Below are positions 6,668 to 41,745 of a stretch of DNA of 64,000 nucleotides, in pieces. Below the pieces are notes generated by a model. The model did not search any database and had not been told where the DNA came from. It was given only the letters and a program-made list of their open reading frames with translations. Location of the stretch: IMG/VR virus record IMGVR_UViG_3300013114_000208, positions 1-64,000 of that record; one strand, written 5' to 3'. How positions within the stretch are numbered: the stretch's first letter is position 1; every line of letters starts with the position of its first letter. Position numbers and translations under genes: made by a program. The DNA comes from an uncultured virus (IMG/VR IMGVR_UViG_3300013114_000208) (lineage: Duplodnaviria > Heunggongvirae > Uroviricota > Caudoviricetes).

Positions 6668-6704
6668 AACATCAATATTTACCCAGATCGAAAAAAGCCT
6701 TTAA

Positions 6705-6794
6705 AATCAATGACTTAAAAAAATGTGAAAAATCAATGAAATCAAGCACTTATCGGCCCAAAAAGGTAGACTTCTGACAGGAATCTGCTATAAT
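6705..6794 (+). promoter_or_regulatory. Early sigma70-type promoter with two upstream IHF-consensus boxes
   Basis: AATCAATGACTTA 6705-6717; AATCAAGCACTTA 6740-6752; TAGACT 6767-6772; TGc-TATAAT 6786-6794. Confidence 0.75.
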
Positions 6795-8403: not shown

Positions 8404-8443
8404 GGCAGGCAGGAACGGGCGCAATGCCTCAGTACTGCCTGCC
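8404..8443 (+). other. GC-rich stem-loop between the AAA and VWA genes (terminator or RNA element)
   Basis: GGCAGGCAG (8404-8412) pairs with CTGCCTGCC (8435-8443); inner GGGCGCAATGCC; no clean U-tract. Confidence 0.55.
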
Positions 8444-8444
8444 A

Positions 8445-8500
8445 ATTCAAGCACTTACAGCACTATTTTCCGTGACAGATTAGCAGATAAATGCTATAAT
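8445..8500 (+). promoter_or_regulatory. Early sigma70-type promoter with one IHF-like box
   Basis: ATTCAAGCACTTA 8445-8457; GTGACA 8472-8477, 17 bp, TGc-TATAAT 8492-8500; 17-mer TCAAGCACTTACAGCAC identical to 1674-1690. Confidence 0.72.
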
Positions 8501-23508: not shown

Positions 23509-23514
23509 AACTAA

Positions 23515-24696: not shown

Positions 24697-25372
24697 TTGC
24701 TAATTCTGGATAGTAGACAGTTTGTTGTAAGTTATAAGCACGCCAATGTGTTAAACAATATTCACAAATATCGCTATTTGCTAACATTATTAAAATATCG
24801 TCGTAATTTAATATATAATCTTTATAGTACTGTGGATCACGTTGCGTGTATATACTATTTAATTTATTCTGTATTATGGTATCATACAATACGAATTGAA
24901 ATGGATATGACATAGTTAATGTAATCATAGTGTCTGTGAATTTTTTTAAATATTCACATGCTTGTCCTACTACTTGATAAGGTATAGCCTGGGCAGATAA
25001 ATCTTTTAATGGTCGATCTTTTGTACCAACACCATACCCATCTTTATCAGCATTAAACATACTATAGGTATTAGATATTATCTGGTCTTCTGGATTACGT
25101 ACAAGTATAATTAACTGTTTGCCTTTTGTTAAAAATAACTTTTTAGCATGAGCTGCTTCATGCCTAAACTCACACTTCTCACCAATTGAATGAAAATAAC
25201 TCTGTAAGTAATGATTACCAGCACGTTTAGCACCATAGATAACTATAGTATCTTCTGATTCACGTTCAGGAACCTTCCCTGCAGGGAATGGTGTTCTGTC
25301 TTTACTTTTCTTACTATTTGCTAGTTTTTCAAAATCATGTTTACTAACATCACTCTTTCCGTTTTTAGCCAT
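24680..25372 (-). CDS. Sulfotransferase-like P-loop protein
   Basis: IYGAKRAGNHYL and ILVRNPEDQIIS resemble the two PAPS-binding motifs. Confidence 0.55.
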   Translation of the reverse strand: MAKNGKSDVSKHDFEKLANSKKSKDRTPFPAGKVPERESEDTIVIYGAKRAGNHYLQSYFHSIGEKCEFRHEAAHAKKLFLTKGKQLIILVRNPEDQIISNTYSMFNADKDGYGVGTKDRPLKDLSAQAIPYQVVGQACEYLKKFTDTMITLTMSYPFQFVLYDTIIQNKLNSIYTQRDPQYYKDYILNYDDILIMLANSDICEYCLTHWRAYNLQQTVYYPELANVNKS

Positions 25373-26054
25373 TAAAATAATCTCCCAGTTTTATTTCTTT
25401 AGGATTAAAATTATCATTTTTAATTATATCAATAATTAAATTAGCCATCTTAATATTATTTTCTTCACTCAAATGACATATTCTATCATCTTCTATTTTT
25501 ACATCACTGTATTTTTTCTTAGAAAAACCTTTATTTTTATATTCATTGAAGCTAATTTCTCCTAAGCTAATATCAGCAATTGGTCCACTTTGTGGTATAT
25601 ATTCTTGCATACTATTTTCAAAACAAGGAAACCAAATACATTTTTTTTGTTTTTGAACCATTAATTCATCTATTTGCATTAATATACCTTTTTGTGCCAT
25701 GTTATGATATTCTTCATAAAAAATATGTTTATAATATTTAAGAGCGGATTGTTCGATTGTAGAAGGTGGGCCGCGGTCCCCGGAGCATCCAATCCAGGGC
25801 CTTGGATTGTAAAACATTGGCAATGCTTCTCTATTTGGTAACCTAGCAGGATCTGTAATACAAAATATTACATAATCTGCTTTATCTACCACTGGTAAAA
25901 GCTTTTCATACGAATGAATTAAAGCACAGCCGGCCATACCGTCACATACAATGTTAGCATCATAATGGTGCCATAATAAATTTGGCCATCCCAGATATGG
26001 TTGTTCGTCATATATTTTACAAAAACTATCACCACAAAATGCAATGGAGGTCAT
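25365..26054 (-). CDS. SGNH-like (GDSF…H) hydrolase/acyltransferase
   Basis: FCGDSFC at the N-terminus; DDRICHLSEENN at the C-terminus. Confidence 0.65.
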   Translation of the reverse strand: MTSIAFCGDSFCKIYDEQPYLGWPNLLWHHYDANIVCDGMAGCALIHSYEKLLPVVDKADYVIFCITDPARLPNREALPMFYNPRPWIGCSGDRGPPSTIEQSALKYYKHIFYEEYHNMAQKGILMQIDELMVQKQKKCIWFPCFENSMQEYIPQSGPIADISLGEISFNEYKNKGFSKKKYSDVKIEDDRICHLSEENNIKMANLIIDIIKNDNFNPKEIKLGDYFNG

Positions 26055-26100
26055 GGCCGAGTCACACCCAAATAAACTACCTGGTGTGGCGAAATTTTTA
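26055..26100. repeat. 45-bp element, copy A (inverted relative to 40317-40363)
   Basis: GGCCGAGTCACACCCA-aataaact-ACCTGGTgTGGCGAAATTTTT; fills the whole intergenic gap. Confidence 0.9.
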
Positions 26101-27699
26101 TGTGCATACTTTTACACCGTATAGTTCAGTAAAACGCTTGGCGTCTTCAATGTCATTTACCATTGGCTCGCCTCTAATGTTTAAACTAGTATTTAACAAC
26201 ATTGGACAACCTGTATAATATTCCCACATCTTAAGCAATTTACGTACATTAGGATTATCATTTGGCCCTACCGTCTGCACTCTGCTTGTGCCATCCTTAT
26301 GTACAATCGCCGGAAACTTATCTGGCTGTCTACACCGTCCTACATACTGCATAAACGGACTTGGAATGTGTGTCATTGTAAAATGATGCGGTTGACCTGA
26401 CTTATGTACGGAAAAAGAAGGGCGTGTAGAAGGATGTGCTGGTGTAGTTACTAGTGGCATTTCAAAGTACTCTTCTGATCTCTCTTCGAGTATCATTGGA
26501 GCAAACGGCCTAAACTTTTGCCGACGCTTTATCTCATTTACTTTATCTTTAATGTCTGGCCCGCGTGGATCAGCAAACAATGTCCTATTGCCTAGTGCCC
26601 TTGGACCAAACTCCGCTCTACCGTTGGCAACGCCCACAATTTGACGTGAGGACATTAATTCTTTTATAATTTCTCCATCTGGGTATTCACCTTTTATATC
26701 ATACCCCAGGAACGGCCCTCGCCAGTTTAGTTTCTTACCATATGTTAGGGCGGCCGCGCCTAAACTACTGCCAGCATCACCAGGATTGGGCATAATCCAA
26801 ACATCCTCCCAAATGCGGGAAATATTAGTATTACAAACGCAATTTAACGCAACACCTCCCATGTAAACTAAATTAGGAGACTTGCCAATACGCCGTGCAA
26901 AATTCATTATGTATGTTACAACTTGTTCTAGTGCAACTTGAGCAGAAGCGGCTATATCGTATTGGTCTTGTTCTACCATATCGTCATCTTGTGACGTCCA
27001 TGGCGGGCCACTGTGCCAATCAGTGCCTAAATGTAAGTTTTCTCTTGCACGAAGTATTTTCGGACCGCCAATTTTCCAAAACTTATCTAGTATTTCTCTA
27101 TTATAAATTGGCTCTCCATATGCTGCCATACCCATTAAAATATACTCTTCATCTAACGGCCGCAAGCCAACTTTTTGCGTCATCGCACTGTAAAACAGTC
27201 CTACACTATTAGGATACTTTGCTCCCCAAATTCTTTCATAGCAGGCTTGGCCATTACCATCATAATATGCATTCCATAACGTAATACAATCCCATTCTCC
27301 AATAGCATCTATTACTACTACAGTGGCATCATTAAAAGGACTTGTTTGGAAGCCTGCGGCGGCGTGGCTGTGGTGATGATTATGATAATTAAAACTAGTT
27401 TTGTTCCATCTAAACCCTGTGTTGTATGCTATTTTCTTTTTAATGCTAAACTCTGTAAACAAGTCTTTCCATTGCCCGGAATACAACTGTCTAGTTTTCT
27501 TAAGCCACGGATTTTCATAGTATGAGACAAAATCGGGGTAACCATAATCTAATGCGTTGTTAAGTAACTTGCTGTTTAATTCTTTATCGTGTTTTACTTT
27601 GCTATAACGTTCTGCGTGTCCAGCGAACAATATTTCACCGTCATCTATTAAACTAATTGCCGCATCATGGAAACCGCAACTTACTCCTAATATTTTCAT
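26098..27699 (-). CDS. Carbamoyltransferase (NodU/CmcH/TobZ family)
   Basis: HDAA, ERYS..KHD, HHHSHAA, DAIGE, GGVALNC, PGDAGSSLGAA, EFGPRALGNR, RPFAP, HKDGTSRVQTV, NTSLN. Confidence 0.95.
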   Translation of the reverse strand: MKILGVSCGFHDAAISLIDDGEILFAGHAERYSKVKHDKELNSKLLNNALDYGYPDFVSYYENPWLKKTRQLYSGQWKDLFTEFSIKKKIAYNTGFRWNKTSFNYHNHHHSHAAAGFQTSPFNDATVVVIDAIGEWDCITLWNAYYDGNGQACYERIWGAKYPNSVGLFYSAMTQKVGLRPLDEEYILMGMAAYGEPIYNREILDKFWKIGGPKILRARENLHLGTDWHSGPPWTSQDDDMVEQDQYDIAASAQVALEQVVTYIMNFARRIGKSPNLVYMGGVALNCVCNTNISRIWEDVWIMPNPGDAGSSLGAAALTYGKKLNWRGPFLGYDIKGEYPDGEIIKELMSSRQIVGVANGRAEFGPRALGNRTLFADPRGPDIKDKVNEIKRRQKFRPFAPMILEERSEEYFEMPLVTTPAHPSTRPSFSVHKSGQPHHFTMTHIPSPFMQYVGRCRQPDKFPAIVHKDGTSRVQTVGPNDNPNVRKLLKMWEYYTGCPMLLNTSLNIRGEPMVNDIEDAKRFTELYGVKVCT

Positions 27700-28252
27700 A
27701 GAGTATTTCCGCTATTCTTCTATGGCCTTCTGCTCTTGGGTGGCCTCTAGGACCATGTTCATATTCATATACCCAATTTACTACTGCTTCATCTGGCCAG
27801 CCTATAAAATACTTATCGTCAACTAGTTGCTTAAACTCTGAATCACTATCACTTATGTATTTTTCATTATCAAAACCATTAAACATTATATAAGAAAAAT
27901 TATGCTCTTCAAACCAATCTTGTAAGTCTCTTACATGTACAAAGTATAAATCAAGCAAATATTGCTTGTCTAATTTTTGTAATATTACATCTATTGGGGG
28001 GTTGTCGTTAAATCGTCTGAATGTTGACCACTGTATAATCCAAATTGTAGGCGGGAAGGCTTCAGAAAAACTACCAGTAATAGACCAATAATCTTTTGTT
28101 GTTTGTACTATACCAGCATTATCTTTACCATTTTCACCAAAATTTACTACGTCTAAATTAAGCATCTGTGATAAAATATACGGCCATGCTTCGCTATACG
28201 GTTTATCTAATTCATCTCCGTAAGTAAAACTATCACCATTGGTAAAAATCAT
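27665..28252 (-). CDS. SGNH-like protein (DUF6071-like)
   Basis: NGDSFTYGDEL, N.G..G.DN, IQWS, GHP.AEGH. Confidence 0.75.
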   Translation of the reverse strand: MIFTNGDSFTYGDELDKPYSEAWPYILSQMLNLDVVNFGENGKDNAGIVQTTKDYWSITGSFSEAFPPTIWIIQWSTFRRFNDNPPIDVILQKLDKQYLLDLYFVHVRDLQDWFEEHNFSYIMFNGFDNEKYISDSDSEFKQLVDDKYFIGWPDEAVVNWVYEYEHGPRGHPRAEGHRRIAEILYENIRSKLRFP

Positions 28253-28494
28253 TACATTGTTGGTCGGTATTGATCAGCCATAGTGATGTACCAACAACCT
28301 CCATCATTTGTTGGTTCAAACCTTTTTATATAAGAACTTTTTTCTATCCAAAAAGGGAATTCTTTTGCAATTGCTCCTTTACCAGTAATAACTTTTACTT
28401 TTTTCTCTTTGTCTTTGTGCATATCTCTGAGAAAACTTAATGTTTCGTTGTATGCATCTTGTAAGTTATAACCGTGTAAATCTAATATGTTCAT
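28252..28494 (-). CDS. Standalone Smr/MutS2 C-terminal domain protein
   Basis: LDLHG….A, VITGKG, N.GG. Confidence 0.88.
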   Translation of the reverse strand: MNILDLHGYNLQDAYNETLSFLRDMHKDKEKKVKVITGKGAIAKEFPFWIEKSSYIKRFEPTNDGGCWYITMADQYRPTM

Positions 28495-28697
28495 TTATAT
28501 ATAAATGGATCTTTCTTTTTCAATTCTTTTAAACGTTTACGATATTTAAGTTCTCGTTTAATAGTAAGTATCTTATCCCGTAACCAACGATAACCTTTAC
28601 TAGGTTTGTGTACTATTAAACTTTTTAATTTTTCTTGCACATCACTCTCCGGGTATTGGCCCCACGCTTCCTGTGATAATTTGTTTGGCTTTTTCAT
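28491..28697 (-). CDS. Small basic hypothetical protein
   Basis: C-terminal YRKRLKELKKKDPFIYK; start uncertain, placed at MKKPNK. Confidence 0.6.
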   Translation of the reverse strand: MKKPNKLSQEAWGQYPESDVQEKLKSLIVHKPSKGYRWLRDKILTIKRELKYRKRLKELKKKDPFIYK

Positions 28698-29550
28698 ATA
28701 ACAGTTCCGCGGCATCTTTATGTGCCTGTTCAAGTGGATGTGACGTAGCATATGGATAACCATTTGCTTTTGCCCAATCATCGAACCCCATAAACTCTTT
28801 ATCGCCGGGAAATTTAAACCACTCATCAAATTTTATAAAACTATGTAAGCCATTAGTAAACTTATCTATACTAATAAGGCCTTTCATTACATGTTCATTG
28901 ACATATGTAAACATATATTTAACATTTCTACTCTCTAAAAAGTCTTGTAGCATTAAAATTTTCTGTAGTGATGTATATTTGTCATGCAAATCACTTACAA
29001 CTGTATAATATGATTTTGCATAGTCTACTAACCCTAAATCTTTGTTTATTAAATATCGCTTATGCATATCATCATGTACTTCTTGCCAATTTGGCACACT
29101 TTTGGATACTTTTTTAAACCAATTTGATTTAGTCTCATCCTCACATACATAAGGATCTACAGCAAACCACGGACTATCATACCTTTTTATGTCAAAATTT
29201 ACAGCAATTTCTTGTCTTGCCACAAATGTCCACATTACTTGAACAAATATTTCGTCAGGTTTATAGTTGTGTTCTAATGCTTCATATATTATATTAATAA
29301 TATGCCTAACAATATAGGAATTACTACGGCCACTCTCTCCCGTGTTAATATGTTTTGCATTTAATTTATTTGCTGTTAAATTGGCCCAAGAATGTTTACT
29401 TGCAGCTGCGAATGGCCCTAGCCTTATAGGTTGAGTTGGTCGATGATAGGGTGTGCTGGTGACTACCGGCACGTGCATCGTGCCACAATCATCTGACAAT
29501 TCACTACCAAACGTGAAACTATCACCCCCAGAGATTACTAATGTGATCAT
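28642..29550 (-). CDS. SGNH-like protein (DUF6071-like), paralog 1
   Basis: SGGDSFTFGSEL, RSN, VMWT, HPLEQAH. Confidence 0.8.
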   Translation of the reverse strand: MITLVISGGDSFTFGSELSDDCGTMHVPVVTSTPYHRPTQPIRLGPFAAASKHSWANLTANKLNAKHINTGESGRSNSYIVRHIINIIYEALEHNYKPDEIFVQVMWTFVARQEIAVNFDIKRYDSPWFAVDPYVCEDETKSNWFKKVSKSVPNWQEVHDDMHKRYLINKDLGLVDYAKSYYTVVSDLHDKYTSLQKILMLQDFLESRNVKYMFTYVNEHVMKGLISIDKFTNGLHSFIKFDEWFKFPGDKEFMGFDDWAKANGYPYATSHPLEQAHKDAAELLYEKAKQIITGSVGPIPGE

Positions 29551-30496
29551 ATATTATCTCCGCCGCATCTATATGTGCTTGTTCTAATGGGTGGCCTCCA
29601 GGACCAAATTTATATTTTTTCCTCTTCTTTGTTGGACTTGTGCGTTGTGATCCGGCTGCCCAATTCCAAAAACCAATATAATCTTTTTCTGGGCGTTTAA
29701 ATCCACCATACGATTTTCTATCAAACATTTCCCAAGAAGAAAAACTAAACCACTCATCAAATTTTATTTCTCTACGCAGTTCATCAATAATATCTATAGG
29801 TGTATCTAAATCTGTTGTATATTCATTTTTTACATCTATACCAGTAAGTTGATCTATAACCTCAGAGTGTACATACGTAAACATATATTTAATGTTTCTA
29901 TTCTCTAAAAATTCTTGTAAAAATAAAATTTCTTTAAGAGATATATAATGATCAGTTAACTCTCCAGTAACTTTATAATACTCTTCTATATAATTTGCAA
30001 ACCCTATAAGTTTATTATCAACATCATCTAAAGCACTATGTGGATCTACATTAAACCATGGAGAATCCGGTCTATCATAATATATTGGACCAGTTCCAGG
30101 CTTGCCTGCTTTGCCTCCTCGATCATACTCGTGAAGTAAATTATTAACAAGAACTTCGTGTCTTCCAAGATATGTCCACATTACTTGAACGAATATTTCA
30201 TTAGGTCTATACGGACGAATTCGGCCTGGCCGTCCGAGTATTCCGGAATTAATGTTCTGATTGTAGTGTAATGCTTTAGATACTTCGTGTATGATATGCC
30301 TAGTAATAAAACTATTACTTCGACTAGGCCAAGCAGTATTAATATGTATTGCTTTTAATTTTTGTGCTACTAGATCTGCCCAGGAAAATTTACTTGGCAT
30401 TAGCTGGACAAGCGTCTTTCCAGTTTCATCAATATCTGACAACTCACTGCCAAAGGTAAAACTATCACCACCTGATATTACTAATTTAACAGACAC
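29522..30496 (-). CDS. SGNH-like protein (DUF6071-like), paralog 2
   Basis: SGGDSFTFGSEL, RSN, VMWT, HPLEQAH; DNA-level similarity to paralog 1. Confidence 0.8.
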   Translation of the reverse strand: MSVKLVISGGDSFTFGSELSDIDETGKTLVQLMPSKFSWADLVAQKLKAIHINTAWPSRSNSFITRHIIHEVSKALHYNQNINSGILGRPGRIRPYRPNEIFVQVMWTYLGRHEVLVNNLLHEYDRGGKAGKPGTGPIYYDRPDSPWFNVDPHSALDDVDNKLIGFANYIEEYYKVTGELTDHYISLKEILFLQEFLENRNIKYMFTYVHSEVIDQLTGIDVKNEYTTDLDTPIDIIDELRREIKFDEWFSFSSWEMFDRKSYGGFKRPEKDYIGFWNWAAGSQRTSPTKKRKKYKFGPGGHPLEQAHIDAAEIIYDHISNLWG

Positions 30497-31592
30497 CAGG
30501 CATGGCCTCTATTGACATATTAACAAATTTATCATCATACCAACGATAATTCCATTCTGCATATGCGTCTGATGTTTTTAAACTTTGTACATCTAAAAAG
30601 TTATTTAAAACATACCAAACAATAGGAGTATTCTCCGTATTAAAAGAACGTTCTAAGTCAACTTGTCCTACCTTTGGGTGCCCTAATGTTAATGAAGGAT
30701 CATCTGGATCTAAATTATTACTTCGTAGCCAATCACAAAACTCAATTATTTTTCGTTCTCTCCATTCATGCTCTGAAAAATGTTCATTAGGCGACCAATT
30801 TATATCAAAATCGCCGGCGGCTTTAGTTTGTGTGTATAAAGCAGTTGTTATTTCTCCCAGTGAGCCCGATTCACCTCCTTCGTCATTAAATACTTCCCAA
30901 TGAGTCTTGCCTACTGCTTTATTAACACCTACATATACACCGCCGAAGTTTTTTGTTAGTGCGTGGACACCAAACTCCGTAAAGTCCTCGTCGGAATCTA
31001 AGTTGAATCTAGGAGCGTTTAGCCAACACATTAATTGCGACTTTTGCATCCATTCTGGTGCTTGTACTAACTTACGATTACTTAATGCCCACGTTTCAAA
31101 CTCGTGACATAATAAGTTTAATTGCCTAATATAGTATTTTGTTTCTTTGTCTGCTCTCCAATAATGATACGTCATTGATGTTTTTACGTCACCAGTATCG
31201 TGTCCTTGCAATTCTTCAAACCATCTGTGTAACCAATTAAACCTTTCATGATTAACCATTAGTCCAGGCAAGTCTATACCAACATCTCCATACTGTAAAC
31301 AATTTTCTAAATTGTATTCATCTGTTTCTATTTTATAATCTATATTACTATGTTCGTTTATAAATTTAATTGCGTGATTTATTTCATTTAAAATTACTTC
31401 ACCGTCCCTTTGGCCAAAAATAAATCCCATGAAACAATAGTTTTTTTCTAGTATTAAGTTTTGATTAAGTATGTCGTTTAGTGCAGTTAACCATTTACGT
31501 CCTAAAGGTGTGTCATAAACATCCATGTACACTTCCATAGTGCTAAAATCATCACTACGTAAACGCATTGTTAGTTTATCAAGTATTTTCAT
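30486..31592 (-). CDS. Hypothetical protein associated with the radical SAM cluster
   Basis: 368 aa, coupled on both sides; NWLHRWFEEL, LNLLCHEFE, VGKT.WEVFNDE. Confidence 0.8.
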   Translation of the reverse strand: MKILDKLTMRLRSDDFSTMEVYMDVYDTPLGRKWLTALNDILNQNLILEKNYCFMGFIFGQRDGEVILNEINHAIKFINEHSNIDYKIETDEYNLENCLQYGDVGIDLPGLMVNHERFNWLHRWFEELQGHDTGDVKTSMTYHYWRADKETKYYIRQLNLLCHEFETWALSNRKLVQAPEWMQKSQLMCWLNAPRFNLDSDEDFTEFGVHALTKNFGGVYVGVNKAVGKTHWEVFNDEGGESGSLGEITTALYTQTKAAGDFDINWSPNEHFSEHEWRERKIIEFCDWLRSNNLDPDDPSLTLGHPKVGQVDLERSFNTENTPIVWYVLNNFLDVQSLKTSDAYAEWNYRWYDDKFVNMSIEAMPGVC

Positions 31593-32029
31593 GTTAACCT
31601 TTTTTTAATTTTAGCACTAACAGCACCCATGTCTACCTTTCCTTGCCCTTTGGGTTTTATCCAACCCATTACTTTACCCATCTCTTTAATTGTTTTTGCG
31701 CCAGTTTCCTTAAAGGCTTCGTCTATTAACGCATCTACTTCTGCTTCGCTTAATTGTTTAGGCAAATATTCCTCTATTACTACCAAAGTAGACTCTTCTT
31801 TAGCAACAAGGTCTTGCCTATTACCCTTTGCAAATTGTTCAATGGAGTCTTTGCCTTGTTTTACCATTTTTTCAATGACACTTATTACTCCTGCTTCGTC
31901 TAACTCAGCACGATCATCAACTTCACGTCTTTGAATAGCGGCACGTAGCAAACGGATTGCTTCCAACCTTTGCTTGTCCTTTGAACGCATTGCGTCCTTC
32001 ATGTCTTGCGTAATTTTATCTTTAAGCAT
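31589..32029 (-). CDS. yqeY: GatB/YqeY domain protein
   Basis: DMKDAMRSKDK.RL..IR…KQ.KDSIEQF..GNRQDL..KE…YLP.QLSE…MGKVMG. Confidence 0.92.
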   Translation of the reverse strand: MLKDKITQDMKDAMRSKDKQRLEAIRLLRAAIQRREVDDRAELDEAGVISVIEKMVKQGKDSIEQFAKGNRQDLVAKEESTLVVIEEYLPKQLSEAEVDALIDEAFKETGAKTIKEMGKVMGWIKPKGQGKVDMGAVSAKIKKRLT

Positions 32030-32432
32030 CTAGTAAATCTAGTATTCGTTTTGACAAATACGCGGCATTTATTGCACCTGCTTTGCCAATAGACATACAT
32101 GCAACTGGTACACCCTTTGGCATTTGTGAAATACTTAACAAACTATCCATGCCATTTAGTTCGGACGACATGGGTACGCCAATAACTGGCAGACTTGTGT
32201 ATGCGGCGCATACGCCAGGCAATGCGGCCGCCATACCAGCGGCGGCAATAATTATTCTGTTGCCTCTTTCTTCTGCTTCTTCTACCCATTGTTTAACTTT
32301 CTCCGGATCTCTGTGTGCTGATGCTACAATATAGTCAAAGGGTATATCTTCCTCCTCTAAAATATCAACACAGTTGTTCATGCATTCACTATCGGATGGA
32401 CTTCCCATGATAATTCCTACTAATCCTGCCAT
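32022..32432 (-). CDS. purE: N5-CAIR mutase / AIR carboxylase
   Basis: IIMGS.SD, SAHR.P, AG.AAALPG, LPVIGVP, GMDSLLSI.QMP.GVPVA, NAA. Confidence 0.92.
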   Translation of the reverse strand: MAGLVGIIMGSPSDSECMNNCVDILEEEDIPFDYIVASAHRDPEKVKQWVEEAEERGNRIIIAAAGMAAALPGVCAAYTSLPVIGVPMSSELNGMDSLLSISQMPKGVPVACMSIGKAGAINAAYLSKRILDLLDA

Positions 32433-33151
32433 GCTTCTAGCCTCCTTTTAACTTCCTTGTATCCTGCTAACAAGTCACCTTTGTCAAACCTAAACAAATC
32501 TTTGTCAAAGGACTGCATTGTATTAACATCCCATAGACGCATTGTGTCAGGACAAATTTCATCTGCTAAAACTATGTCACCATATTGGTTAATTCCAAAT
32601 TCTAACTTGAAATCTACTAGCACTAATCCCAAAGTGTAAAAAATTGCCTTGAGATACTTATTAACATCTCTAGTCATTGCAGTCATTGCTTTTAATTCTT
32701 TTTCACGAGAAGGTTCTAATGCTGTAATTGCCTCCCATGCTATAGGTGGATCACCTAAATCATCATCTTTAACACAATACTCTACAATAGCATGATTAAG
32801 TTTAGTTCCATTTTCTAAACCATAACGTTTACAAAATGTTCCTGCGGCAACATTACGTACAATTACCTCTATAGGAATTATAGTCACGTGATCAGCAACA
32901 ATTTCTCTGTCACTAATCTTCTCTACATAGTGTGTCGGTACACCTAAATGTTCCATTGCACGTAAAAGTACGTCACTAATCCAACAATTAAGTTCACCTT
33001 TGCCATCAAACTCGCTTTTCTTTTCCGCGTTAAACGCAGTAGCATCATCTTTAAAGTACATAATGACTTGATTACGAAATTGCAACCCTTCGATTGACCA
33101 AATCTTCTTTGCTTTACCTTCGTATAACATATTATTCTTAACGTATTTCAT
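32420..33151 (-). CDS. purC: SAICAR synthetase
   Basis: [53 protein letters not shown]. Confidence 0.95.
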
Positions 33152-33363
33152 TTTTTTATGTCCTTTCTTCCATACTTTTCTTGGAACTTACTTACTCGTC
33201 CCTCAACTTTTACTTTGCCTGCTCCACCTGTATAGAAAGGGTGACAATTAGAGCATACTTCCACGTATAAATCTTTACATAAGGTGGACCTGGTTTCGAA
33301 TTCATTGCCACAATGGCACTTTACTTTTATTACTTCATACTTTGGATGTATATCTTTCTTCAT
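33148..33363 (-). CDS. rpmE: 50S ribosomal protein bL31 (Zn-ribbon type)
   Basis: MKKDIHPKY…CHCGN…[12 protein letters not shown]…GRV.KF..KY; AAGGAAGGTG RBS. Confidence 0.95.
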
Positions 33364-33374
33364 GTCACCTTCCT

Positions 33375-34430
33375 TTACCTTTCGTCGTATATTGATCCAG
33401 TCTTTTGACCGTTGGTAACACCGTCACATGTATCTGTAATATGTTTAATAATACGATACGGGTCTGCATTACCTGCTGGACGCCTATCTTCCAAGTAACC
33501 GTGCCAATCATTTTGTGTAGTATAAATTGGAATTCGTATACTTGCACCGCGATCACTAACACCATAACTAAATTCATCTATGCTTTGTGTTTCATGTAAC
33601 CCTGTTAAACGTTGGTCGTTGTCTGAACCATACTCTTTGATGCCAATTTCGTGAACCTTTCCTAATGCTTCACACATATTGGTCATTAATTGCTCCGTTC
33701 CATAACTTCTCATGTTATTATTAGAGAAATTTGTATGCATACCTGTGCCATTCCAGTCACCCTTTACAGGTTTAGGTGCAAGGTTAATTGACACGCCATG
33801 TTTTTCAGCAATTTTAATTAAAATATATCTTGCCATCCAAAGGTCATCGCCTGCTTTAACTCCTTTTCCTAAAACTTGGAACTCCCATTGCCCTAAGGCA
33901 ACCTCTGCATTGGTTCCTGTAATGCCAATTTCTGCATTCATACATGCTTCGGTATGTCGGTCAACAATTTCTCTACCAACAACATTGTCACTACCTACAC
34001 CACAGTAGTAATCTCCTTGTGCCCTTGGCTCTCCTTTTTTAGGCCAGCCTAATGGACGTCCATCCTGGTACATAAAGTACTCTTGTTCAAATCCAAACCA
34101 CCAATCGTCACTAACATTCTTAACTGCGTGACGTGTATTACTAGGATGTGCTTTATTTTCTGAGTCTAAAACCTCACACATGACATAAGTTGCACTCATG
34201 TCTTCGCCTGTCATACGTCTTGTTGCATCTGGTCTAATTCTATCAAGCATATAATACTGTGAAACAGGATTTAAAATACAATCTGAACTTCCACCTTCCG
34301 CTTGTTGCGTTGATGAACCATCAAATGACCATCTTACTGCGTTGTTATCAATTTTTACTTTACTTCTTAATGAAGGTTCTGGCGTATAACCATCTAGCCA
34401 GACATACTCAAACTTTTTTCCGTGATTCAT
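33375..34430 (-). CDS. Glutamine synthetase, type II
   Basis: [62 protein letters not shown]; start after the GGAGG RBS. Confidence 0.93.
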
Positions 34431-35743
34431 AATGCCTCCCACCATGATAATAATTGATCCTTAAGTATATCTTCTAAACGAACTTTATCGTTTCGTATTT
34501 TTTCTATTCTTAATACTCTTTTCTTGCCACCCTTTGCACCCTTTACGTATTCTTCGGGCCATTGTTCCTCGAAGTTGGGTCGATTTTTCATGTTCTCTAG
34601 GACATCTATTAAAGGTTTTTGCTTCCATGTATAAGGTTGACAATATTCTAACAGTTCGTCTATAAAACTATTTAGTATTCCCCTAGGTAATGACATGGGA
34701 GACATGATTATGTCAGGGGTAAATGCAAATGTCACCTTGGCCAACAGTGGAGTATCCAATTCTTTACTCAAGTCAAACATATTTTTTACTTCGTAAAGGC
34801 CCGGAAGGGTTAAAGTGAAGTCCAAACGCATTTGGTTTGGAGTTTTTTGGTGTTCCATTCCTAATTTGTAGTATTCCAACCACGTGTCATAGTGTAAACC
34901 ATCCCTAATGTACTCACCAATGACATTAGTTCCGTCAATTGACGCACAAATTTGCCAATCTCTTATGTTGTCAAGGATGTCTTTAAACAAATGACATCCC
35001 TTGTACTCAATTCTTGACAGGTTTGTGTTGTATCTTGCATAAACTTTTGCTCCGTCACCTAGTTCTATAATTTTTTTCATGTAACGCCAGTGTTCTTCCA
35101 TCATTAATGGCTCTCCACCTACCCAATATATCTCTTCCACACGGTGGTCATTAACTGCGTCACTAAATTCTTGCTCAACTACACTACTTTGGAACTCACT
35201 TATCTTTTTTCTTACGTCCGGTCGCATCCAATTATTAGAAATGTCATTGTAATCTACCATGTCATTGACTTTTTCTTCCGATTCCCACGCACTACTTAAC
35301 ATGTCACCACACATTCGGCACTTAAAGTTACACAAATTACTAAATCGGTAGTCCCAGCTGACAGGTTTCATGGTAGTATAACCCGTGTCATCCGTTTTTT
35401 CCCATATGTCATTGTATTTTTCTTTAAACAAATGCCAAAAGTAGTCCCGGTATACGTCGGTATTGAGTAATTTCTCATTACACACTTGGCATTCGGGTAT
35501 GATGTCACCGTTCATGTGCGCCTTTCTTACTCTTTTCATGTGGTCACTGTTCCAATGTTGCTCTAATGTCATTGGTTTATACGTTCCTGTACCGGAATCA
35601 GTGTCGATATACTGCTTAAAAGCGTTGGCCGGCTCTCTAGACGCACAACATAAGCGTCTTTCGGACTGTGGTGAAATGTAGGTATGCACGAAAGGGGCAA
35701 GACAGAGCGATTTTGGTTTTACGGTTGGTTTTTTGCTTTCCAT
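34427..35743 (-). CDS. Twitch-domain radical SAM protein (#7)
   Basis: CLAPF.H…CC…C.VC; CNFKCRMC; GGEP; YNTN; SIDG; EYIR. Confidence 0.9.
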   Translation of the reverse strand: MESKKPTVKPKSLCLAPFVHTYISPQSERRLCCASREPANAFKQYIDTDSGTGTYKPMTLEQHWNSDHMKRVRKAHMNGDIIPECQVCNEKLLNTDVYRDYFWHLFKEKYNDIWEKTDDTGYTTMKPVSWDYRFSNLCNFKCRMCGDMLSSAWESEEKVNDMVDYNDISNNWMRPDVRKKISEFQSSVVEQEFSDAVNDHRVEEIYWVGGEPLMMEEHWRYMKKIIELGDGAKVYARYNTNLSRIEYKGCHLFKDILDNIRDWQICASIDGTNVIGEYIRDGLHYDTWLEYYKLGMEHQKTPNQMRLDFTLTLPGLYEVKNMFDLSKELDTPLLAKVTFAFTPDIIMSPMSLPRGILNSFIDELLEYCQPYTWKQKPLIDVLENMKNRPNFEEQWPEEYVKGAKGGKKRVLRIEKIRNDKVRLEDILKDQLLSWWEAL

Positions 35744-37104
35744 TTTTCTTTCTGCCCTTGGTGCCTGTAACCCAGAAATTCGCACAATCTGGGGTCGACC
35801 TCCACGAGTTTCTGCCCCCGAATCGCGTCTATTTTGTAAATTACGTCATGCAAATACGCACGTTCATGCTCCAAGTCACTGACTTCATGGTAATACATGT
35901 ACTCTACAATACTTTTAATTACCTTCAAGAACTCATCCCGGTGTTTAAACGCAGTGAGCCTGTCAACCGCGTTCCAATTGTAATGGAGGAGTCCGTAAGC
36001 AATCTCGTCCTTGGCCCAATCGGGTAGAATTGAAATGTTAAAGTGCTCTGGCTGGTGCATGAGATTAAGGTACCAAGTGTCTAAGTTTTCAATGTCCCTG
36101 ATCCACTGCTGGAGATGAATTAGAGACGCAATATTAAACAAAGACAGGGTGGTACAAATCTCAGTCTCCATATTTTCTAATTTATTTGCACACAAGTAAT
36201 TAATGTTGTAATTAACCTCGTCCCACTTGGCGCCAGACCGTTGGTACTCAAACTTCTCCCCAACGTCATCCACAGAAAAGGAAGCCTTGACCCCTTTGAA
36301 ATGAGGCCAAATGTTTTCCAAAGCATGGAGAGGCAACTGCGTACCATTTGTGTTGTAATGAAGGTAGATGCGACCTGCAAAACCATCCCGAACGGCCTGC
36401 TCTAACAACTCAAAGTGCTCGTTAATTAACCAAGGCTCTCCTCCAGTAAACTCTAAATGAACCACTCCCGGCAGAATCTCTTCCAAGTTGCGCCAGAAGC
36501 GATCGTTTGTTCGAGGCCACTGCCCTTGCTTTTGCCACTGGTACGCTTTTAAGTCCTTTATTTCACTCTTTTGAACACCTTCAAACTGAACAGCGACATC
36601 TATTTCATCCTGCGCCCACTTTGAACTACTCATCGGCCCACAAATACGACACTTTAAGTTGCAAATGGTTCCTAGTTTTAAGTCTAAATAAACCAGGTTC
36701 GAGTCATTGACTTCATTTGTAAAAACGTAGTCCAACTCTGGGTATTTTAAACTGAATTGCTCTGCCCAAATTAAACGTTTAGAAGTTATTCCTTGAGACT
36801 CTTCATCCCAACACTTCTTACAGTTAGAAGGCTTTTTACCTTGCAGAAAGTCTGCCCTCATTTGTTTCATATGCTGAGAGTTAAACGCCTCCTTCAGAGT
36901 ACAAGTTGATAAGTTATAAGGATTACGATCTTCATCCAGAACAGGACCTTCCGTCATACAACAAGGCTTTACGTCCCCAATTGCAGACGCTTCTAAATGA
37001 ATAAACGGTAAGTAACACAGAGTAGGAATTGCTTTGAACGCAGGGTTTCGAACACGGTTGAGATCATCCTTAATTGACAAAACTAAACTCCGGAAAGGTT
37101 TCAT
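35719..37104 (-). CDS. Twitch-domain radical SAM protein (#6)
   Basis: CYLPFIH…PCC…CKKC; CNLKCRIC; GGEP; YNTN; start uncertain. Confidence 0.9.
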   Translation of the reverse strand: MKPFRSLVLSIKDDLNRVRNPAFKAIPTLCYLPFIHLEASAIGDVKPCCMTEGPVLDEDRNPYNLSTCTLKEAFNSQHMKQMRADFLQGKKPSNCKKCWDEESQGITSKRLIWAEQFSLKYPELDYVFTNEVNDSNLVYLDLKLGTICNLKCRICGPMSSSKWAQDEIDVAVQFEGVQKSEIKDLKAYQWQKQGQWPRTNDRFWRNLEEILPGVVHLEFTGGEPWLINEHFELLEQAVRDGFAGRIYLHYNTNGTQLPLHALENIWPHFKGVKASFSVDDVGEKFEYQRSGAKWDEVNYNINYLCANKLENMETEICTTLSLFNIASLIHLQQWIRDIENLDTWYLNLMHQPEHFNISILPDWAKDEIAYGLLHYNWNAVDRLTAFKHRDEFLKVIKSIVEYMYYHEVSDLEHERAYLHDVIYKIDAIRGQKLVEVDPRLCEFLGYRHQGQKEKWKAKNQP

Positions 37105-38314
37105 TAAACGACTCAGAACGAATCTTATCCATTTTAGCGGTGAGTGCCATAAACTCTAAGAATAGTCTAGCATTGCTCGGTTGTTCAATAAAGTTAATTG
37201 CACTTTGAAAACCATTGGTTGCACGTTGGAGAGGATCGATTGGACTAAGATAGTCGATATGTCGTTTGTATTTTTCTATTACCGCCTCCTTATCTGGCAT
37301 TGGTAAATTGTCTATACGGTAATGCGGAGGATTCATTAGTATATTCACATTGAAGTCAGGTGCTTTAATTAGGCCATAGTTAATCCATTCTTTATGAAAG
37401 TCTGGCATATGATACGAATTCAGTATACTCAACGTGCAACTTATATAGAAATCAACGTTTGGGCATACTCGTAACATCTGTTCTCTATTATCGACTATAT
37501 CTTTCCATACAGTTTCTTTCCTTATATACTCTCCTCGCATACCCGAACCGTCTAATGAAGCACCTATACTAACGGAGTCAAACTCTTTCCACATATCCAG
37601 TATACTCAATTGCTTATATTTGAGTTGCGAAAAATTGGTATTGTATATTAACTTAACGTCGGTTCTATTTTGCTTTAGTAATTCGGCAATAATCTCCCAA
37701 TGTGCGGCCATCATTAGGGGTTCTCCACCAGCGAAATATATCTGTTCTACGTATGGTATATGCCTGATACACTCTTCGATATCCAGATTACACGTAATAA
37801 CCTTACTATTTGTAGGGGAATTTTGGTGTAATTTAACATAATCCTGATACCAATTGCTTGAAAACAGGGGACCACACGTTCGACAGCGAAAATTGCATAG
37901 GTTGCTAAACCGAACATCCCAGTATATTATCTCATAGTCTGGTTCTATACTATTGGCCTTTGCTATATGGTGGCCGAAATGTTTATTCGCTGATACCCGG
38001 CCGCTCATAAAGCCATTTTTATCTTGTTCATAACACTTGACGCATTCTGGATTGTGTAGTCCATCAATCATTCTATTACGTATATTCACCATATGTTCGC
38101 TATGCCAAATTTCCTCCAGCGTGTTATCATTTAGATTACCGACTGGCATATCCATCTCACTCATACAGCATAGATGAACAGAACTATCTGGGTATGCGTG
38201 TAAATGTGTCCAAGGATACATACAGAATGATGGGTTTTCTTCTAATACCAATTGTTGGTATAGTGAAAGATCATTCCAATCAATCTTTAGTGGCTTTTTA
38301 TCATTATAGTCCAT
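37070..38314 (-). CDS. Twitch-domain radical SAM protein (#5)
   Basis: CMYPWTH…CC…CVKC; CNFRCRTC; GGEP; YNTN; SLDG. Confidence 0.9.
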   Translation of the reverse strand: MDYNDKKPLKIDWNDLSLYQQLVLEENPSFCMYPWTHLHAYPDSSVHLCCMSEMDMPVGNLNDNTLEEIWHSEHMVNIRNRMIDGLHNPECVKCYEQDKNGFMSGRVSANKHFGHHIAKANSIEPDYEIIYWDVRFSNLCNFRCRTCGPLFSSNWYQDYVKLHQNSPTNSKVITCNLDIEECIRHIPYVEQIYFAGGEPLMMAAHWEIIAELLKQNRTDVKLIYNTNFSQLKYKQLSILDMWKEFDSVSIGASLDGSGMRGEYIRKETVWKDIVDNREQMLRVCPNVDFYISCTLSILNSYHMPDFHKEWINYGLIKAPDFNVNILMNPPHYRIDNLPMPDKEAVIEKYKRHIDYLSPIDPLQRATNGFQSAINFIEQPSNARLFLEFMALTAKMDKIRSESFNETFPEFSFVN

Positions 38315-38336
38315 CGTTATTCTAGGGCCCTGTCTA

Positions 38337-39665
38337 TTAAGACCTCTCCGGGAAGGTTTTGAATAGTGGTATCAACTCTGGGAATACCGTTTGAAAATCT
38401 TCATTACGGTGGTTATCATACTTGGTAATTTCTTTACGGAACTCTGGTATAAGATCCGTTCTATCTTCACTATACATAAAGTTGATTGCACTCTCGAAAC
38501 CATTGGTGGCTCGCTTAATGTCGTCGGCATCTGCTATACTACTTATGTGTTCTTCGTATAGTGACTTAACTTCTTCCTTCATATAGTCGGGTAGTATACT
38601 GAGTCTATAATAGTCGGGCCCTTGGAGAATGTTTACATGAAAGTCGTATACGCCTATAAGGCCGCGCTCTACCCAATCGTTATGAAAGTCTGGTAGGTGG
38701 TATGCGTTTAATACCTGCAATGTGGCACTGGGAAAAAAGTCTACGTCTGGGCACACATCGAGCATGTCGTAACGATTCCTTACTATAGTATCCCATACCG
38801 TTCCCTTACGTATATACTCTGCTCTATCACCCATTCCATCTAACGATGCTCCTATACTGACATCATCGAATAATCTCCACATGTCGAATACTGAACGCCC
38901 CTTATACTTGACTTCCGAGAAGTTAGTATTGTATACTAACGATACATCTAACTTATCTCGCTTAATCAATTCATCCATTATACGCCAGTGTTCTTCCATC
39001 ATTAAAGGCTCACCTCCTGCCCAGTATATCTTATGGAGATTGTCTATATATGGCTCTATCATTTCCCAGTTTAATTGCTTATTACCCCGTGTATAACTTA
39101 TTTTCTCTATATCCGACTGCCCATACATACTGTTATACTCGTTTACCCAATTAGAACTAAACTGTGGCCCACACATCCTACACTTAAAGTTACACATATT
39201 GGTAAAGCGAACATCCCAATAGATTGGATTAACTGGTGATGAACCATCAGGAGTGGTGGTGATATCCTTTATACTATATGCGAAATTTCTATTACTCTCA
39301 TTACGTAATGAATAAAACCCATTACGCTCCTTCTCATAACACTTATTACACTCCTTACACGGTATGCCATTGAGCATATTGTGTCGCATAGTCCTATAGG
39401 AGGCATTGTTCCATACTTCTTCGAGTGTATAATCTCTAAGATTACCTATAGGTTCATTAGGCTCTGCCATACAGCACGGGTAAGCATTACCATCGGACCA
39501 TCCGTGTATATGGATCCACGGTAGCATACAGAATACATCACTATTACATAATAAGTCACGTTCTTCTATAGTAAAGAAGCTATTAGGCAACGATTGTTTA
39601 TTACGATCCAATAACAGTGTAGTGGTATTGAATGGTGTATCTTTGTTAAGGTAACCTTTATCCAT
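38337..39665 (-). CDS. Twitch-domain radical SAM protein (#4)
   Basis: CMLPWIH…PCC…CNKC; CNFKCRMC; GGEP; YNTN; SLDG; closest to #5. Confidence 0.9.
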   Translation of the reverse strand: MDKGYLNKDTPFNTTTLLLDRNKQSLPNSFFTIEERDLLCNSDVFCMLPWIHIHGWSDGNAYPCCMAEPNEPIGNLRDYTLEEVWNNASYRTMRHNMLNGIPCKECNKCYEKERNGFYSLRNESNRNFAYSIKDITTTPDGSSPVNPIYWDVRFTNMCNFKCRMCGPQFSSNWVNEYNSMYGQSDIEKISYTRGNKQLNWEMIEPYIDNLHKIYWAGGEPLMMEEHWRIMDELIKRDKLDVSLVYNTNFSEVKYKGRSVFDMWRLFDDVSIGASLDGMGDRAEYIRKGTVWDTIVRNRYDMLDVCPDVDFFPSATLQVLNAYHLPDFHNDWVERGLIGVYDFHVNILQGPDYYRLSILPDYMKEEVKSLYEEHISSIADADDIKRATNGFESAINFMYSEDRTDLIPEFRKEITKYDNHRNEDFQTVFPELIPLFKTFPERS

Positions 39666-39850
39666 AATATTTTAAAATAAAAAAAACTTTTTGAAAAAGA
39701 AAAAAGAGTTGGGGCGTAGTGACAATGCATGTGGTAGAAAAAACAAATCGGGCATGTTGTATGTTTCTAATTTTTTTTGTCGCTCGAAATATTCTGCCCT
39801 ATAGGAAAAAATTTTCCCCGTCGTTCGACAACCCGACAGATAACCCGACC
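39666..39850. other. Non-coding A/T-tract-rich region with short repeats
   Basis: Multiple A5-A8/T5-T8 runs; GGAAAA-AA-TTTTCC (39804-39817); AACCCGAC twice (39830, 39842). Confidence 0.6.
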
Positions 39851-40093
39851 CTACCATCTCCAGGGTAACATACTCATACCCAGCAGATTTAATAACAGTT
39901 CCATCACAATAACAAACACCAAACCTCCGCCTAGTTGCCATGCCCACCACTTCCATCCTGTAAGACTACGTGACCAATTAGCCAACTTACTGTTATGTGC
40001 TTTGTCGTACGCACCTGTTTTATTGCCTATCTCACTTGCCCAGTAGTTAGGATCCACTACGTTCTTTATTGTTTTTAATAGTTTTATTATCAT
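39851..40093 (-). CDS. Small membrane protein
   Basis: 80 aa; WKWWAWQLGGG followed by a TM helix. Confidence 0.7.
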   Translation of the reverse strand: MIIKLLKTIKNVVDPNYWASEIGNKTGAYDKAHNSKLANWSRSLTGWKWWAWQLGGGLVFVIVMELLLNLLGMSMLPWRW

Positions 40094-40287
40094 AAGCGTT
40101 TAATTACCATTAGTTGCTCATACCCTAGGAAGTTGTTTACGATTACTTCATGCTCACCCGTACCACATAATAAAGTTAGTGATAACAGTATTCCTATGCA
40201 GATGCCACACACTATTAATAGTAGTGCAGTACCCCAACGTGGTATGTTTTTTAAATAATTCATATATTCAAATCCTCCGCCCTGCAT
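40090..40287 (-). CDS. Small membrane protein
   Basis: One TM helix; real start may be MNYLK after GGAGG. Confidence 0.55.
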   Translation of the reverse strand: MQGGGFEYMNYLKNIPRWGTALLLIVCGICIGILLSLTLLCGTGEHEVIVNNFLGYEQLMVIKRL

Positions 40288-40316
40288 TGTTATGTTCCGA
40301 TATGGTATCTACTGTG

Positions 40317-40363
40317 TAAAAAATTTCGCCAAACCAGGTGTTTCGGCTGGGTGTGACTCGGCC
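40317..40363. repeat. 45-bp element, copy B (inverted relative to 26055-26100)
   Basis: Reverse complement reads GGCCGAGTCACACCCA-gccgaaac-ACCTGGTtTGGCGAAATTTTTT; 38/45 identical to copy A. Confidence 0.9.
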
Positions 40364-40380
40364 CCGCCCACTTTAGCGTA

Positions 40381-41745
40381 TTAGTCATGGGGTAGTTCCT
40401 CATACCATTGTTTTAAGTTAGGGAAAGTCTCTGTAAAGTTCTTGTTTCGTCGTGTGTCGTATTGTTTATAGAAGTGATAAAAGTCGTTCTGTAGTGCTTC
40501 TGGTTCGAACGTATCGCTGTGTGGTTTATCTACTACACTTAAATAATCTAACAGTCGTAGTATGTGATTGCCTTCCATTTCGTGTAGATTGTCTTCGTTT
40601 AAAACAAGCCATTGCTCTAAGTTGTCTCTGTATTGTTGCCGTATTGATTGCGGTAGCACTAGTGGAGATTGGAAGGATGGAAACCTTAATATGTTTAAAG
40701 TAAACGTAGGAAAGTCACGTCCGTACTGTTGTTTAAAACTCATTACGTGATCTAAGAACTTTGGCAAGGAATCCAAGCACAAACTGTTAATAGTACACAT
40801 CATATGGAAGCCTTCTAAATTACCGTCCCTACATACACGATGGCAGTTTTCTACCCATTTATCCCATACTAATCCGTCTCTAATATACTCTGCTTGTGCG
40901 CCGAATGCTTCACAAGATGTATATAGATGTAAGTGTGGAATATGTTGTGCGTTCTCTATAAAGCGATCTATTAGTTCGTCTTTAGCACCTAAGTTAGAAT
41001 TGATAGCGAGCCTCATATCGGACTTTTTGTCTGTTAGTTTGAACCATTCAAATAACTTCCATATTTCGCCCGACATTAAGGGTTCGCCACCAGTTATCCT
41101 AAACTCATCTAGTGTTTCGTGTAGTTCTTCTTGCCACCATTGCCAAAAGGCTTCTGTAAATGGATTTGTTTCGTCGTGCTTATATAACTGTGCTTCGTTG
41201 TGTTGATGTGTGAAATGGTTACGGCCGTCTGACTTTAATTTCTCGTAGGAACCATTGTTCTTTATATCCTTTACCCAGGTACTACTAAAAGCAGGATTGC
41301 AATAAGAACAAGCAAAATTGCAAGTCCTATCAAAGGCGGCCTCGAGAGTGCGTAATGCAAAGTTTTCTTCGGCATCTTTTTGTCTAACATAATGTACGTC
41401 CTCCTCATCATATATGACGCTTTTATGGACACGATCGGATATAGCATCGGGCCCAATATCTTCTATTTTCCAACAGTATTCACAACCGGGTGGCCTTTCG
41501 CCTGCAAGCATTTGTTCTCTATCTTGCTTTTTTTGTTTTGTATTATGAATAGCTGATGAATTATTTAGTAGTTCTTTAATATCTATTTTGTGTGCCGGCG
41601 GGTGGTGACAACTAGTAGTCATACCACTTCCAAGCCATATAGTAGCGTTTCGCCACTTGGCCATACAAAATGATGGACTTACTGTCTCGTTAAGCCATCG
41701 TTTAATTTTTAAATCTGATTCTCTACCTGGTGTTCTTAATGTCAT
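40381..41745 (-). CDS. Twitch-domain radical SAM protein (#3)
   Basis: FCMAKW…SCHHP…CEYCW; CNFACSYC; GGEP; AEYIR. Confidence 0.9.
   Translation of the reverse strand: MTLRTPGRESDLKIKRWLNETVSPSFCMAKWRNATIWLGSGMTTSCHHPPAHKIDIKELLNNSSAIHNTKQKKQDREQMLAGERPPGCEYCWKIEDIGPDAISDRVHKSVIYDEEDVHYVRQKDAEENFALRTLEAAFDRTCNFACSYCNPAFSSTWVKDIKNNGSYEKLKSDGRNHFTHQHNEAQLYKHDETNPFTEAFWQWWQEELHETLDEFRITGGEPLMSGEIWKLFEWFKLTDKKSDMRLAINSNLGAKDELIDRFIENAQHIPHLHLYTSCEAFGAQAEYIRDGLVWDKWVENCHRVCRDGNLEGFHMMCTINSLCLDSLPKFLDHVMSFKQQYGRDFPTFTLNILRFPSFQSPLVLPQSIRQQYRDNLEQWLVLNEDNLHEMEGNHILRLLDYLSVVDKPHSDTFEPEALQNDFYHFYKQYDTRRNKNFTETFPNLKQWYEELPHD

Follow-up and report, generated by a model that had tools for sequence, protein, structure and literature searches.

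A 45-bp element occurs twice, in inverted orientation, in a 64,000-nt stretch of DNA from an uncultured Caudoviricetes virus (positions 1 to 64,000 of the IMG/VR record IMGVR_UViG_3300013114_000208, hereafter the window), and its two copies, e1 and e2, stand at the ends of a 14.2-kb segment. The copies, two per genome, change position between relatives, the cargo next to them is replaced, and their arms are better conserved than the neighbouring coding DNA. The reading that we tentatively prefer is that this would be a sequence-constrained boundary element of plastic accessory-gene junctions, similar to the PeSL elements of T4-type phages and possibly acting as an attenuator. The conserved block would provide a patch of homology or recognition for recombinational exchange. 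Copy e2 would head a swappable cassette of small open reading frames (ORFs) with a conserved 3' end, and through its weak GC dyad followed by a T-tract it would probably attenuate transcripts that run on from the radical SAM genes before it. The 14-kb bracket would then be an incidental result of two plastic junctions lying near each other, without a function as a unit.

The window covers the first 64 kb of a record that is 77.8 kb long and rated 14% complete; a contig of 235 kb (G001), with a completeness rating of 67%, belongs to the same phage. It is a marine phage of about 350 kb, one of a clade of marine jumbo phages, and the sequencing runs that contain the stretch carry the labels marine or seawater metagenome.

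The two copies and their conservation

26055-26099, + strand: e1, the solo copy, reading GGCC...TTTTT, antisense to every surrounding gene
40319-40363, minus strand: e2, the sense copy; the stop of radical SAM gene B is 18 nt upstream of it, and the small ORF at 40287 has its first ATG 31 nt downstream

Both 45-bp sequences are present as the initial annotation of this DNA had claimed, with arms identical at 16/16 and 20/21 positions and a variable centre; over the whole length the identity is 38/45, and the central 8 nt (AATAAACT in e1 and GCCGAAAC in e2) agree at 2/8 positions. On the table-11 ORFs the two copies are indeed intergenic and the genes around them all lie on the minus strand. 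The claim that they are GC-rich holds in a moderate sense, at 47% and 53% in the two copies against 37% in the window. The 16-mer of the first arm, with up to three mismatches, is found in the window at e1 and e2 only (mean in shuffled sequence 0.13, with two matches in 1/100 shuffles). If one mismatch is allowed over the 37 arm positions, the number of chance matches expected in the window is about 1e-16, and the pair (repeat I1) is the longest among the 194 inverted-repeat pairs detected there.

Copies were counted in G001 and in a relative, G003 (322 kb, 90% complete), using nhmmer --max with a four-sequence profile and a full-length pattern search. Exactly two copies were found in the 235 kb of G001, which is incomplete, so that a third copy is possible in the unseen third of the phage; the more complete G003 also has exactly two. 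There they are again inverted, about 15 kb apart, at 148030 (+ strand, sense) and 163055-163099 (minus strand, antisense), with the T-tracts facing inwards as in the window. With so few copies in either genome, the element does not act as a general signal. Synteny around the pair is preserved gene for gene between the window and G003, and in both the enclosed genes are co-oriented with the flanks.

When e1 of the window, e2 of the window and e2 of G003 are compared, 1-3 of the 37 arm positions differ. This corresponds to 92-97% identity between paralogous copies, against 70-86% for the neighbouring coding DNA between the two species, and the sequence of the element is therefore constrained.

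Relatives were compared at 76 viral loci with relatives of the carbamoyltransferase that adjoins e1, and at 80 with relatives of the radical SAM gene. The four-sequence nhmmer profile, run on 171 loci of relatives, detected the element in the species of the window and in G003 and in no other relative; more distant relatives have the carbamoyltransferase and radical SAM gene B some 10-13 kb apart without it. Exact and degenerate pattern scans of viral contigs likewise found no lineage beyond these two species, chance matches making up 3/8 and 2/11 stretches. A scan of metagenomes gave 23 stretches, 7 genuine and 16 due to chance, and contributed four more copies of the e2 type, on the short marine contigs L217, L218, L224 and L227. 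Such contigs give local context only, and both copies together are known in two lineages only. Among 185,579 prokaryote genomes there were nine pattern matches, none of them genuine, all lacking the flanking GGCCGAG or GGCGAAATTTT parts.

The e2 junction

40381-41745, minus strand: radical SAM gene B (Pfam Radical_SAM), the conserved gene upstream of e2, 81% identical at the amino acid level to G003 145348-146706
40293-40369, minus strand: 5' boundary block of the cassette (e2 and its flanks), identical at 65/78 positions (83%) to G003 148024-148100; the same block is present in L217, L218, L224 and L227
40090-40287, minus strand: small ORF 1, 65 aa from the first ATG or 57 aa from the ATG at 40263, with one hydrophobic segment
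39851-40093, minus strand: small ORF 2, 80 aa, matching phrog_31764 (function unknown) with E 9e-13
39666-39850, minus strand: conserved 3' end of the cassette, non-coding and located before radical SAM gene C; the core (39770-39827) is identical to G003 at 53/58 positions (91%)
38337-39665, minus strand: radical SAM/SPASM gene C, which follows the cassette in the window but precedes it in G003 and L227

Despite the synteny, e2 occupies different junctions in the two species, following radical SAM gene B in the window and gene C in G003. In both it heads an insert of about 0.7-0.9 kb whose ORFs are unrelated, while the 5' and 3' blocks (65/78 and 53/58) are kept. The contig L227 combines a junction of the G003 type with cargo of the window type, and its 80-aa ORF is 97.5% identical to small ORF 2. 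Further placements were met in the other metagenomic contigs: an extra gene, gene X, lies between gene B and the element in L217; in L224 gene X ends with codons supplied by the element; and in L218 it is found in frame in the middle of gene X, in place of 15-30 nt of a variable loop. All the distinct e2-type contexts (6/6) have the element in sense orientation and within one radical SAM/cassette neighbourhood of about 3 kb, with a small ORF soon after it in 5/6. Homologues of small ORF 1 follow the element in L217, L218, L224 and L227; profile searches found no family for this ORF.

The members of the gene X family are 317-371 aa long, with homologues at G003 304212-305267 and 286456-287415, and neither Pfam nor PHROG assigns them to a family. 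In one member the element, 48 nt long, is present in frame (AAPSHTQPNTWSGEIF), and another ends in the same peptide.

The 3' block can be aligned in five contexts, with two downstream subtypes, and is single-copy per genome. Its 58-nt core contains the palindromes GGAAAATTTTTTCC and CCTATAGG, and a GGGCA...TGCCC pairing about 40 nt apart is conserved, with wobble changes only. When the block was examined as a structured RNA, 11 pairs were predicted, with no compensatory change and no covariation. These about 185 nt may be a promoter/leader or a small RNA. The shared piece G(C/G)GAAA(A)TTTTT is not a genome-wide motif. A CRISPR repeat, an integron attC site and a T7-type promoter (CCTATAGGG in the 3' block) were considered and tentatively set aside.

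The e1 junction

26098-27699, minus strand: carbamoyltransferase (Pfam Carbam_trans_N and Carbam_trans_C), the conserved gene upstream of e1, 80% identical at the amino acid level to that of G003
25365-26054, minus strand: SGNH-like gene abutting e1, a hypervariable slot; it has no Pfam match, and its N-terminal motif IAFCGDSF was read from the sequence

Copy e1 fills the entire gap between the stop of the carbamoyltransferase (26098-26100) and the ATG (26052-26054) of the SGNH-like gene. An orthologue is present at the same junction in G003, identical at 37/45 positions. It is absent from a third relative, G004 (locus L017), in which the stop of the carbamoyltransferase overlaps the start of the following gene in the sequence ATGA, and the carbamoyltransferase of G004 is closer to that of G003 (91%) than to that of the window (81%). 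The SGNH-like gene is 33-36% identical at the amino acid level in all three pairs of window, G003 and G004, against 80-91% for the genes on either side. In the preferred reading e1 is a solo antisense copy at the edge of a swappable SGNH-like gene. Both copies, then, have a conserved gene on one side and a slot of replaced content on the other.

It should be added that the first ~30 nt of the SGNH-like coding sequence, which encode the IAFCGDSF block, are nearly identical in DNA between phages. Since this block is common to the other SGNH paralogues of the window (repeat families D15, D17 and D18), it is likely a patch of recombination between paralogues.

Comparison with PeSLs and with small mobile elements

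The PeSLs of T4-type phages are described as short terminator/promoter motifs upstream of ORFans in hyperplastic regions, where they mediate indels and replacements (PMC2839356; PMC4122927). The likeness lies in a short, conserved intergenic motif that follows the stop of a gene and precedes a small ORFan, within a plastic region; a position at the border of insertions, deletions and replacements between close relatives; and a GC-containing dyad accompanied by AT-rich tracts. A PeSL, however, has a sigma-70 consensus promoter and a strong stem-loop terminator and occurs about 50 times per genome, whereas the present element has two copies, of which one is antisense, lacks a promoter consensus and has a hairpin that is weak and not conserved, and neither mini-circles nor breakpoints are shown for it. 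It is not a member of the PeSL family.

If the preferred reading as a boundary element is correct, the concept of short conserved junction motifs that drive or mark the exchange of accessory genes, so far documented for the T4-type phages, would extend beyond them to uncultured marine jumbo phages of about 350 kb, with a motif of a different build from PeSLs, that is with no promoter, with two copies, in either orientation and tolerated within a gene. The element and the conserved 3' block could serve as anchors to find swappable cassettes in metagenomic relatives.

The same placements would also suit a miniature mobile element, namely a small, GC-richer imperfect palindrome that copies itself to new sites, in either orientation and ORFs included, and we regard this as a less probable but serious competitor. 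Arguing for it are the presence or absence of e1 at an orthologous junction (G004 being without it), the occurrence of both orientations, at least five placements among close relatives, the in-frame copy that replaces a variable loop of gene X, and the fact that all three sense frames are open in our own reading of the aligned copies. No copy was found in the bacterial genomes scanned, which also fits. Analogues are known. The GC clusters of yeast mitochondria are palindromic and GC-richer and, in the text cited, are said to propagate in an AT-rich genome (PMC4478555), and a second source, in the part cited, describes Rickettsia palindromic elements (RPEs) that insert in frame and the terminator-like SPRITE of pneumococci (PMC10969869). 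All are, like the present element, small, GC-richer, partly palindromic and sporadic in an AT-rich genome; the in-frame copy within a gene recalls the RPEs, and the terminator-like look recalls SPRITE.

The analogues, however, are multi-copy and dispersed, whereas here there are two copies per genome in one neighbourhood and no target duplication. The e2-type placements, all confined to about 3 kb, show no genome-wide spread. No direct repeat that could represent a target-site duplication was found at the flanks of the element, and the copy inside gene X, which swaps out 15-30 nt, is not a clean insertion. As for the enzymes that might move it, Y1 (PF01797) and TnpB-type (PF07282) transposases were detected in 0/3 of the records G000, G001 and G003, searches of the phage records found no GIY-YIG gene, and the HNH genes present are >70 kb from the element. 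Finally, the copies are older than the species split and yet near-identical in their arms, which fits constraint within the phage equally well.

Terminator, promoter and RNA fold

Compared with an intrinsic terminator, the element is alike in its GC-containing dyad followed by a T-tract and, for e2, in its sense orientation past a stop codon. The T-tract contains four invariant T, mostly 5-7, in the eight copies, and follows the dyad after a GAAA-type spacer. The differences lie in this spacer of 3-4 nt before the T-run, in loops of 8-14 nt, in a mismatch at the centre of the dyad in 6/8 copies, and in the fact that one copy is antisense and one inside an ORF. A scan for terminators listed e2 as terminator-like (six pairs, a loop of 8 and the tail GAAATTTTTT), and a lenient scan for a hairpin plus T-run in G001 gave 122 candidates, 14 of them intergenic, with e1 and e2 among the 14.

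The 8-bp dyad GTCACACC/GGTGTGGC is paired in 58/64 cells over the eight copies. The minimum free energy structures of the copies disagree on both strands, and no conserved fold was found. In the G003 copy of e1, both substitutions within the helix keep G-U pairs only on the GGCC-to-TTTTT strand; these are two events and give a weak hint of strand specificity. No Rfam family reached its gathering score in the window, the surroundings of e2 giving two chance-level matches (E 4.8), and a search of the window for tRNA and tmRNA genes found none.

Several results weigh against the boundary-element reading, the first of them against its attenuator part. The folding energies of both copies, on both strands, are no better than those of shuffled sequences (z from -0.41 to +1.09). 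The central position of the dyad is unpaired in 6/8 copies with no compensatory change, and an alternative helix specific to e2 is paired in 75% of cells, which makes for a poor terminator. The clear terminators of this phage (G001 23001+, 46326- and 230913-) have perfect short-loop stems right before the T-run, unlike the element. Its orientation does not suit a terminator either, e1 being antisense to its neighbours in both species and the L218 copy lying inside an ORF. No sigma-70-like promoter was listed at 40290-40370 or 26040-26110, and the eight copies have no consistent hexamers. Beyond the attenuator, two copies per genome (G001 and G003) compare with the roughly 50 PeSLs per genome (PMC2839356), and no recombination intermediate was seen and no breakpoint mapped inside the element. 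Moreover, the reading leaves the inverted orientation of e1 without explanation, and both species keep the copies inverted and facing inwards, so that the pair itself could be functional.

It is from this geometry that another explanation starts, according to which the copies are inward-facing polar sites, bound by a protein or acting as stops, that delimit a domain, whether as transcription stops, as a replication-fork trap or as regulator sites. In the version with polar stops, e2 would block sense read-in, and e1 antisense read-in from the convergent + strand block at 1-20 kb. We consider it rather unlikely, although it is the only reading to make use of the conserved inverted geometry, with the copies 14-15 kb apart in both species even though e2 has shifted by one gene. 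It also agrees with arms conserved as sequence and not as fold, including the non-palindromic flanks and the invariant T-tract, with the strand bias of the G-U pairs in the G003 copy of e1, and with the presence of both copies among the 14 intergenic hairpin-plus-T-run candidates of 235 kb. The + and minus blocks converge at 20287-20345, and the scan listed no terminator-like site in 19000-27000. On the other hand, the pair is found in two lineages only, the e2 boundary is not fixed, one relative (G004) is without e1, the hairpins are weak compared with the clear phage terminators, and one copy is inside a gene. In addition, the turning point of the cumulative GC skew of the window is near 20 kb and not between the copies, and no binding protein is known. 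More specifically, it is conceivable, but improbable, that the two sites insulate an island of about 14-15 kb, with its host-derived metabolic and radical SAM genes, from incoming transcription or replication; if true, such an insulating pair would act as a domain boundary of a type as yet undescribed in phages.

The initial annotation had regarded the repeat as acting at the DNA level, a simple promoter or terminator being unlikely. This general view is still reasonable, considering the conservation of the arms relative to coding DNA and the lack of a conserved RNA fold, while an invertase pair and terminal-repeat or packaging signals found no support, as detailed below.

Inversion and terminal repeats

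The phages Mu and P1 have invertible G and C segments with gix/cix sites, and in serine-invertase systems of the Gin/Cin/Hin type the two sites have the same crossover core in their centre. The present arrangement resembles these systems in having a short inverted-repeat pair around a multi-kb segment, and differs from them in that no invertase gene was found, the two centres are not the same, only one arrangement was seen, and no tail-fibre alternatives are enclosed.

That e1 and e2 are recombination sites of a site-specific invertase flipping the 14.2-kb segment is very improbable. The inverted copies, the near-identical arms and the partial dyad would suit such sites. Resolvase (PF00239), however, was found in 0/3 of the records G000, G001 and G003, in a search that was positive in 12/14 control genomes, and Phage_integrase (PF00589) in 0/3 as well, against 14/14 controls. 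The weak agreement of the central 8 nt points in the same direction, as the initial annotation had argued from the differing spacers. The genes enclosed are co-oriented with the flanks in the window and in G003. Furthermore, the flanks are identical in seven assembled instances (four of e1 and three of e2), none of which is recombinant.

Population data were examined as Logan contigs, in which read starts, read ends, strand and rare variants are not visible. In two runs, contigs extend across e1 (X1: 25037-27602; X4: 25555-26288) with the order of the reference, and none of the joints listed changes strand, with the reservation that contigs may miss rare forms. Several short joints near e2 in the runs X5 and X6, which skip 48 and 14 nt and have sides of <30 or ~50 at 90% likeness, possibly stem from related strains and were left out of account; the tables of X5 and X6 are nearly identical and possibly represent one data set.

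Even less probable is the proposal that a long terminal repeat was collapsed in the assembly and has the copies at its edges as terminase or end-processing signals, for which nothing speaks beyond the existence of two copies. The copies are internal in contigs of 235 kb and 322 kb; they are inverted, whereas terminal repeats are direct; and the segment consists of ordinary metabolic and modification genes. In run X1 the contig depths add up to 5.5-9.9 within the segment and 6.3-10 beyond it; at the level of contigs there is no twofold step. The coverage and inversion checks put forward in the initial annotation, as carried out on contigs, therefore gave a flat depth and no inversion, rare forms being beyond the reach of contigs.

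Neither is the 14.2-kb segment supported as a bracketed unit, because e2 lies one gene further in within G003 and the gene order exists in distant relatives without the element. A transposon of 14 kb was rejected as well, since those relatives have the same neighbouring genes but no element. There is thus no support for regarding the 14 kb as an island of auxiliary metabolic genes that is invertible or terminally repeated.

Genes of the segment and of the rest of the window

Within the 14.2-kb segment, Pfam matches comprise the carbamoyltransferase, YqeY, PurE, PurC, ribosomal protein L31, a glutamine-synthetase-like gene and four radical SAM/SPASM genes, in agreement with the initial annotation as regards the carbamoyltransferase, the host-derived cassette and the four radical SAM genes. 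The three SGNH genes that it also named stand on a weaker basis, one weak GDSL match and a common DNA block (repeat families D15, D17 and D18) that is read, by eye, as a G-D-S-F motif. Elsewhere in the window Pfam identifies sugar-modification genes, ThyX and a fibre-like protein of 4173 aa.

The host-like block at 31589-34445 (minus strand: YqeY, PurE, PurC, L31 and the glutamine-synthetase-like gene) is syntenic in G003 with 77-88% amino acid identity, and is therefore an old resident of the phage clade and not a recent capture. The radical SAM array includes at least eight paralogues, at 23515-24696 and 34427-44080 (minus strand); in five of them, according to Pfam, SPASM lies on the N-terminal side of the radical SAM core, whereas the usual order is the opposite.

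The ORF at 20287-23508 (minus strand, 1073 aa) is without family matches and contains 5-8 tandem units of ~195 nt at 21388-23415 (families D1, D3 and D4). It overlaps convergently, by 59 nt (20287-20345), the end of the + strand gene at 19434-20345. The fibre-like protein is encoded at 51317-63838 (minus strand); it has YHYH, FG-GAP and T7 tail-fibre N-terminal domains, and its gene has internal DNA repeats (D5, D9 and D20). Finally, a motif of ~27 nt ending in AATCAAGCACTTA recurs in the + strand gene block at 1622-1690, 6691-6752 and 8438-8463, with pairs 35-36 nt apart (families D10 and D19); a fifth related copy exists besides the pairs, and the motif is a candidate regulatory motif of the phage.

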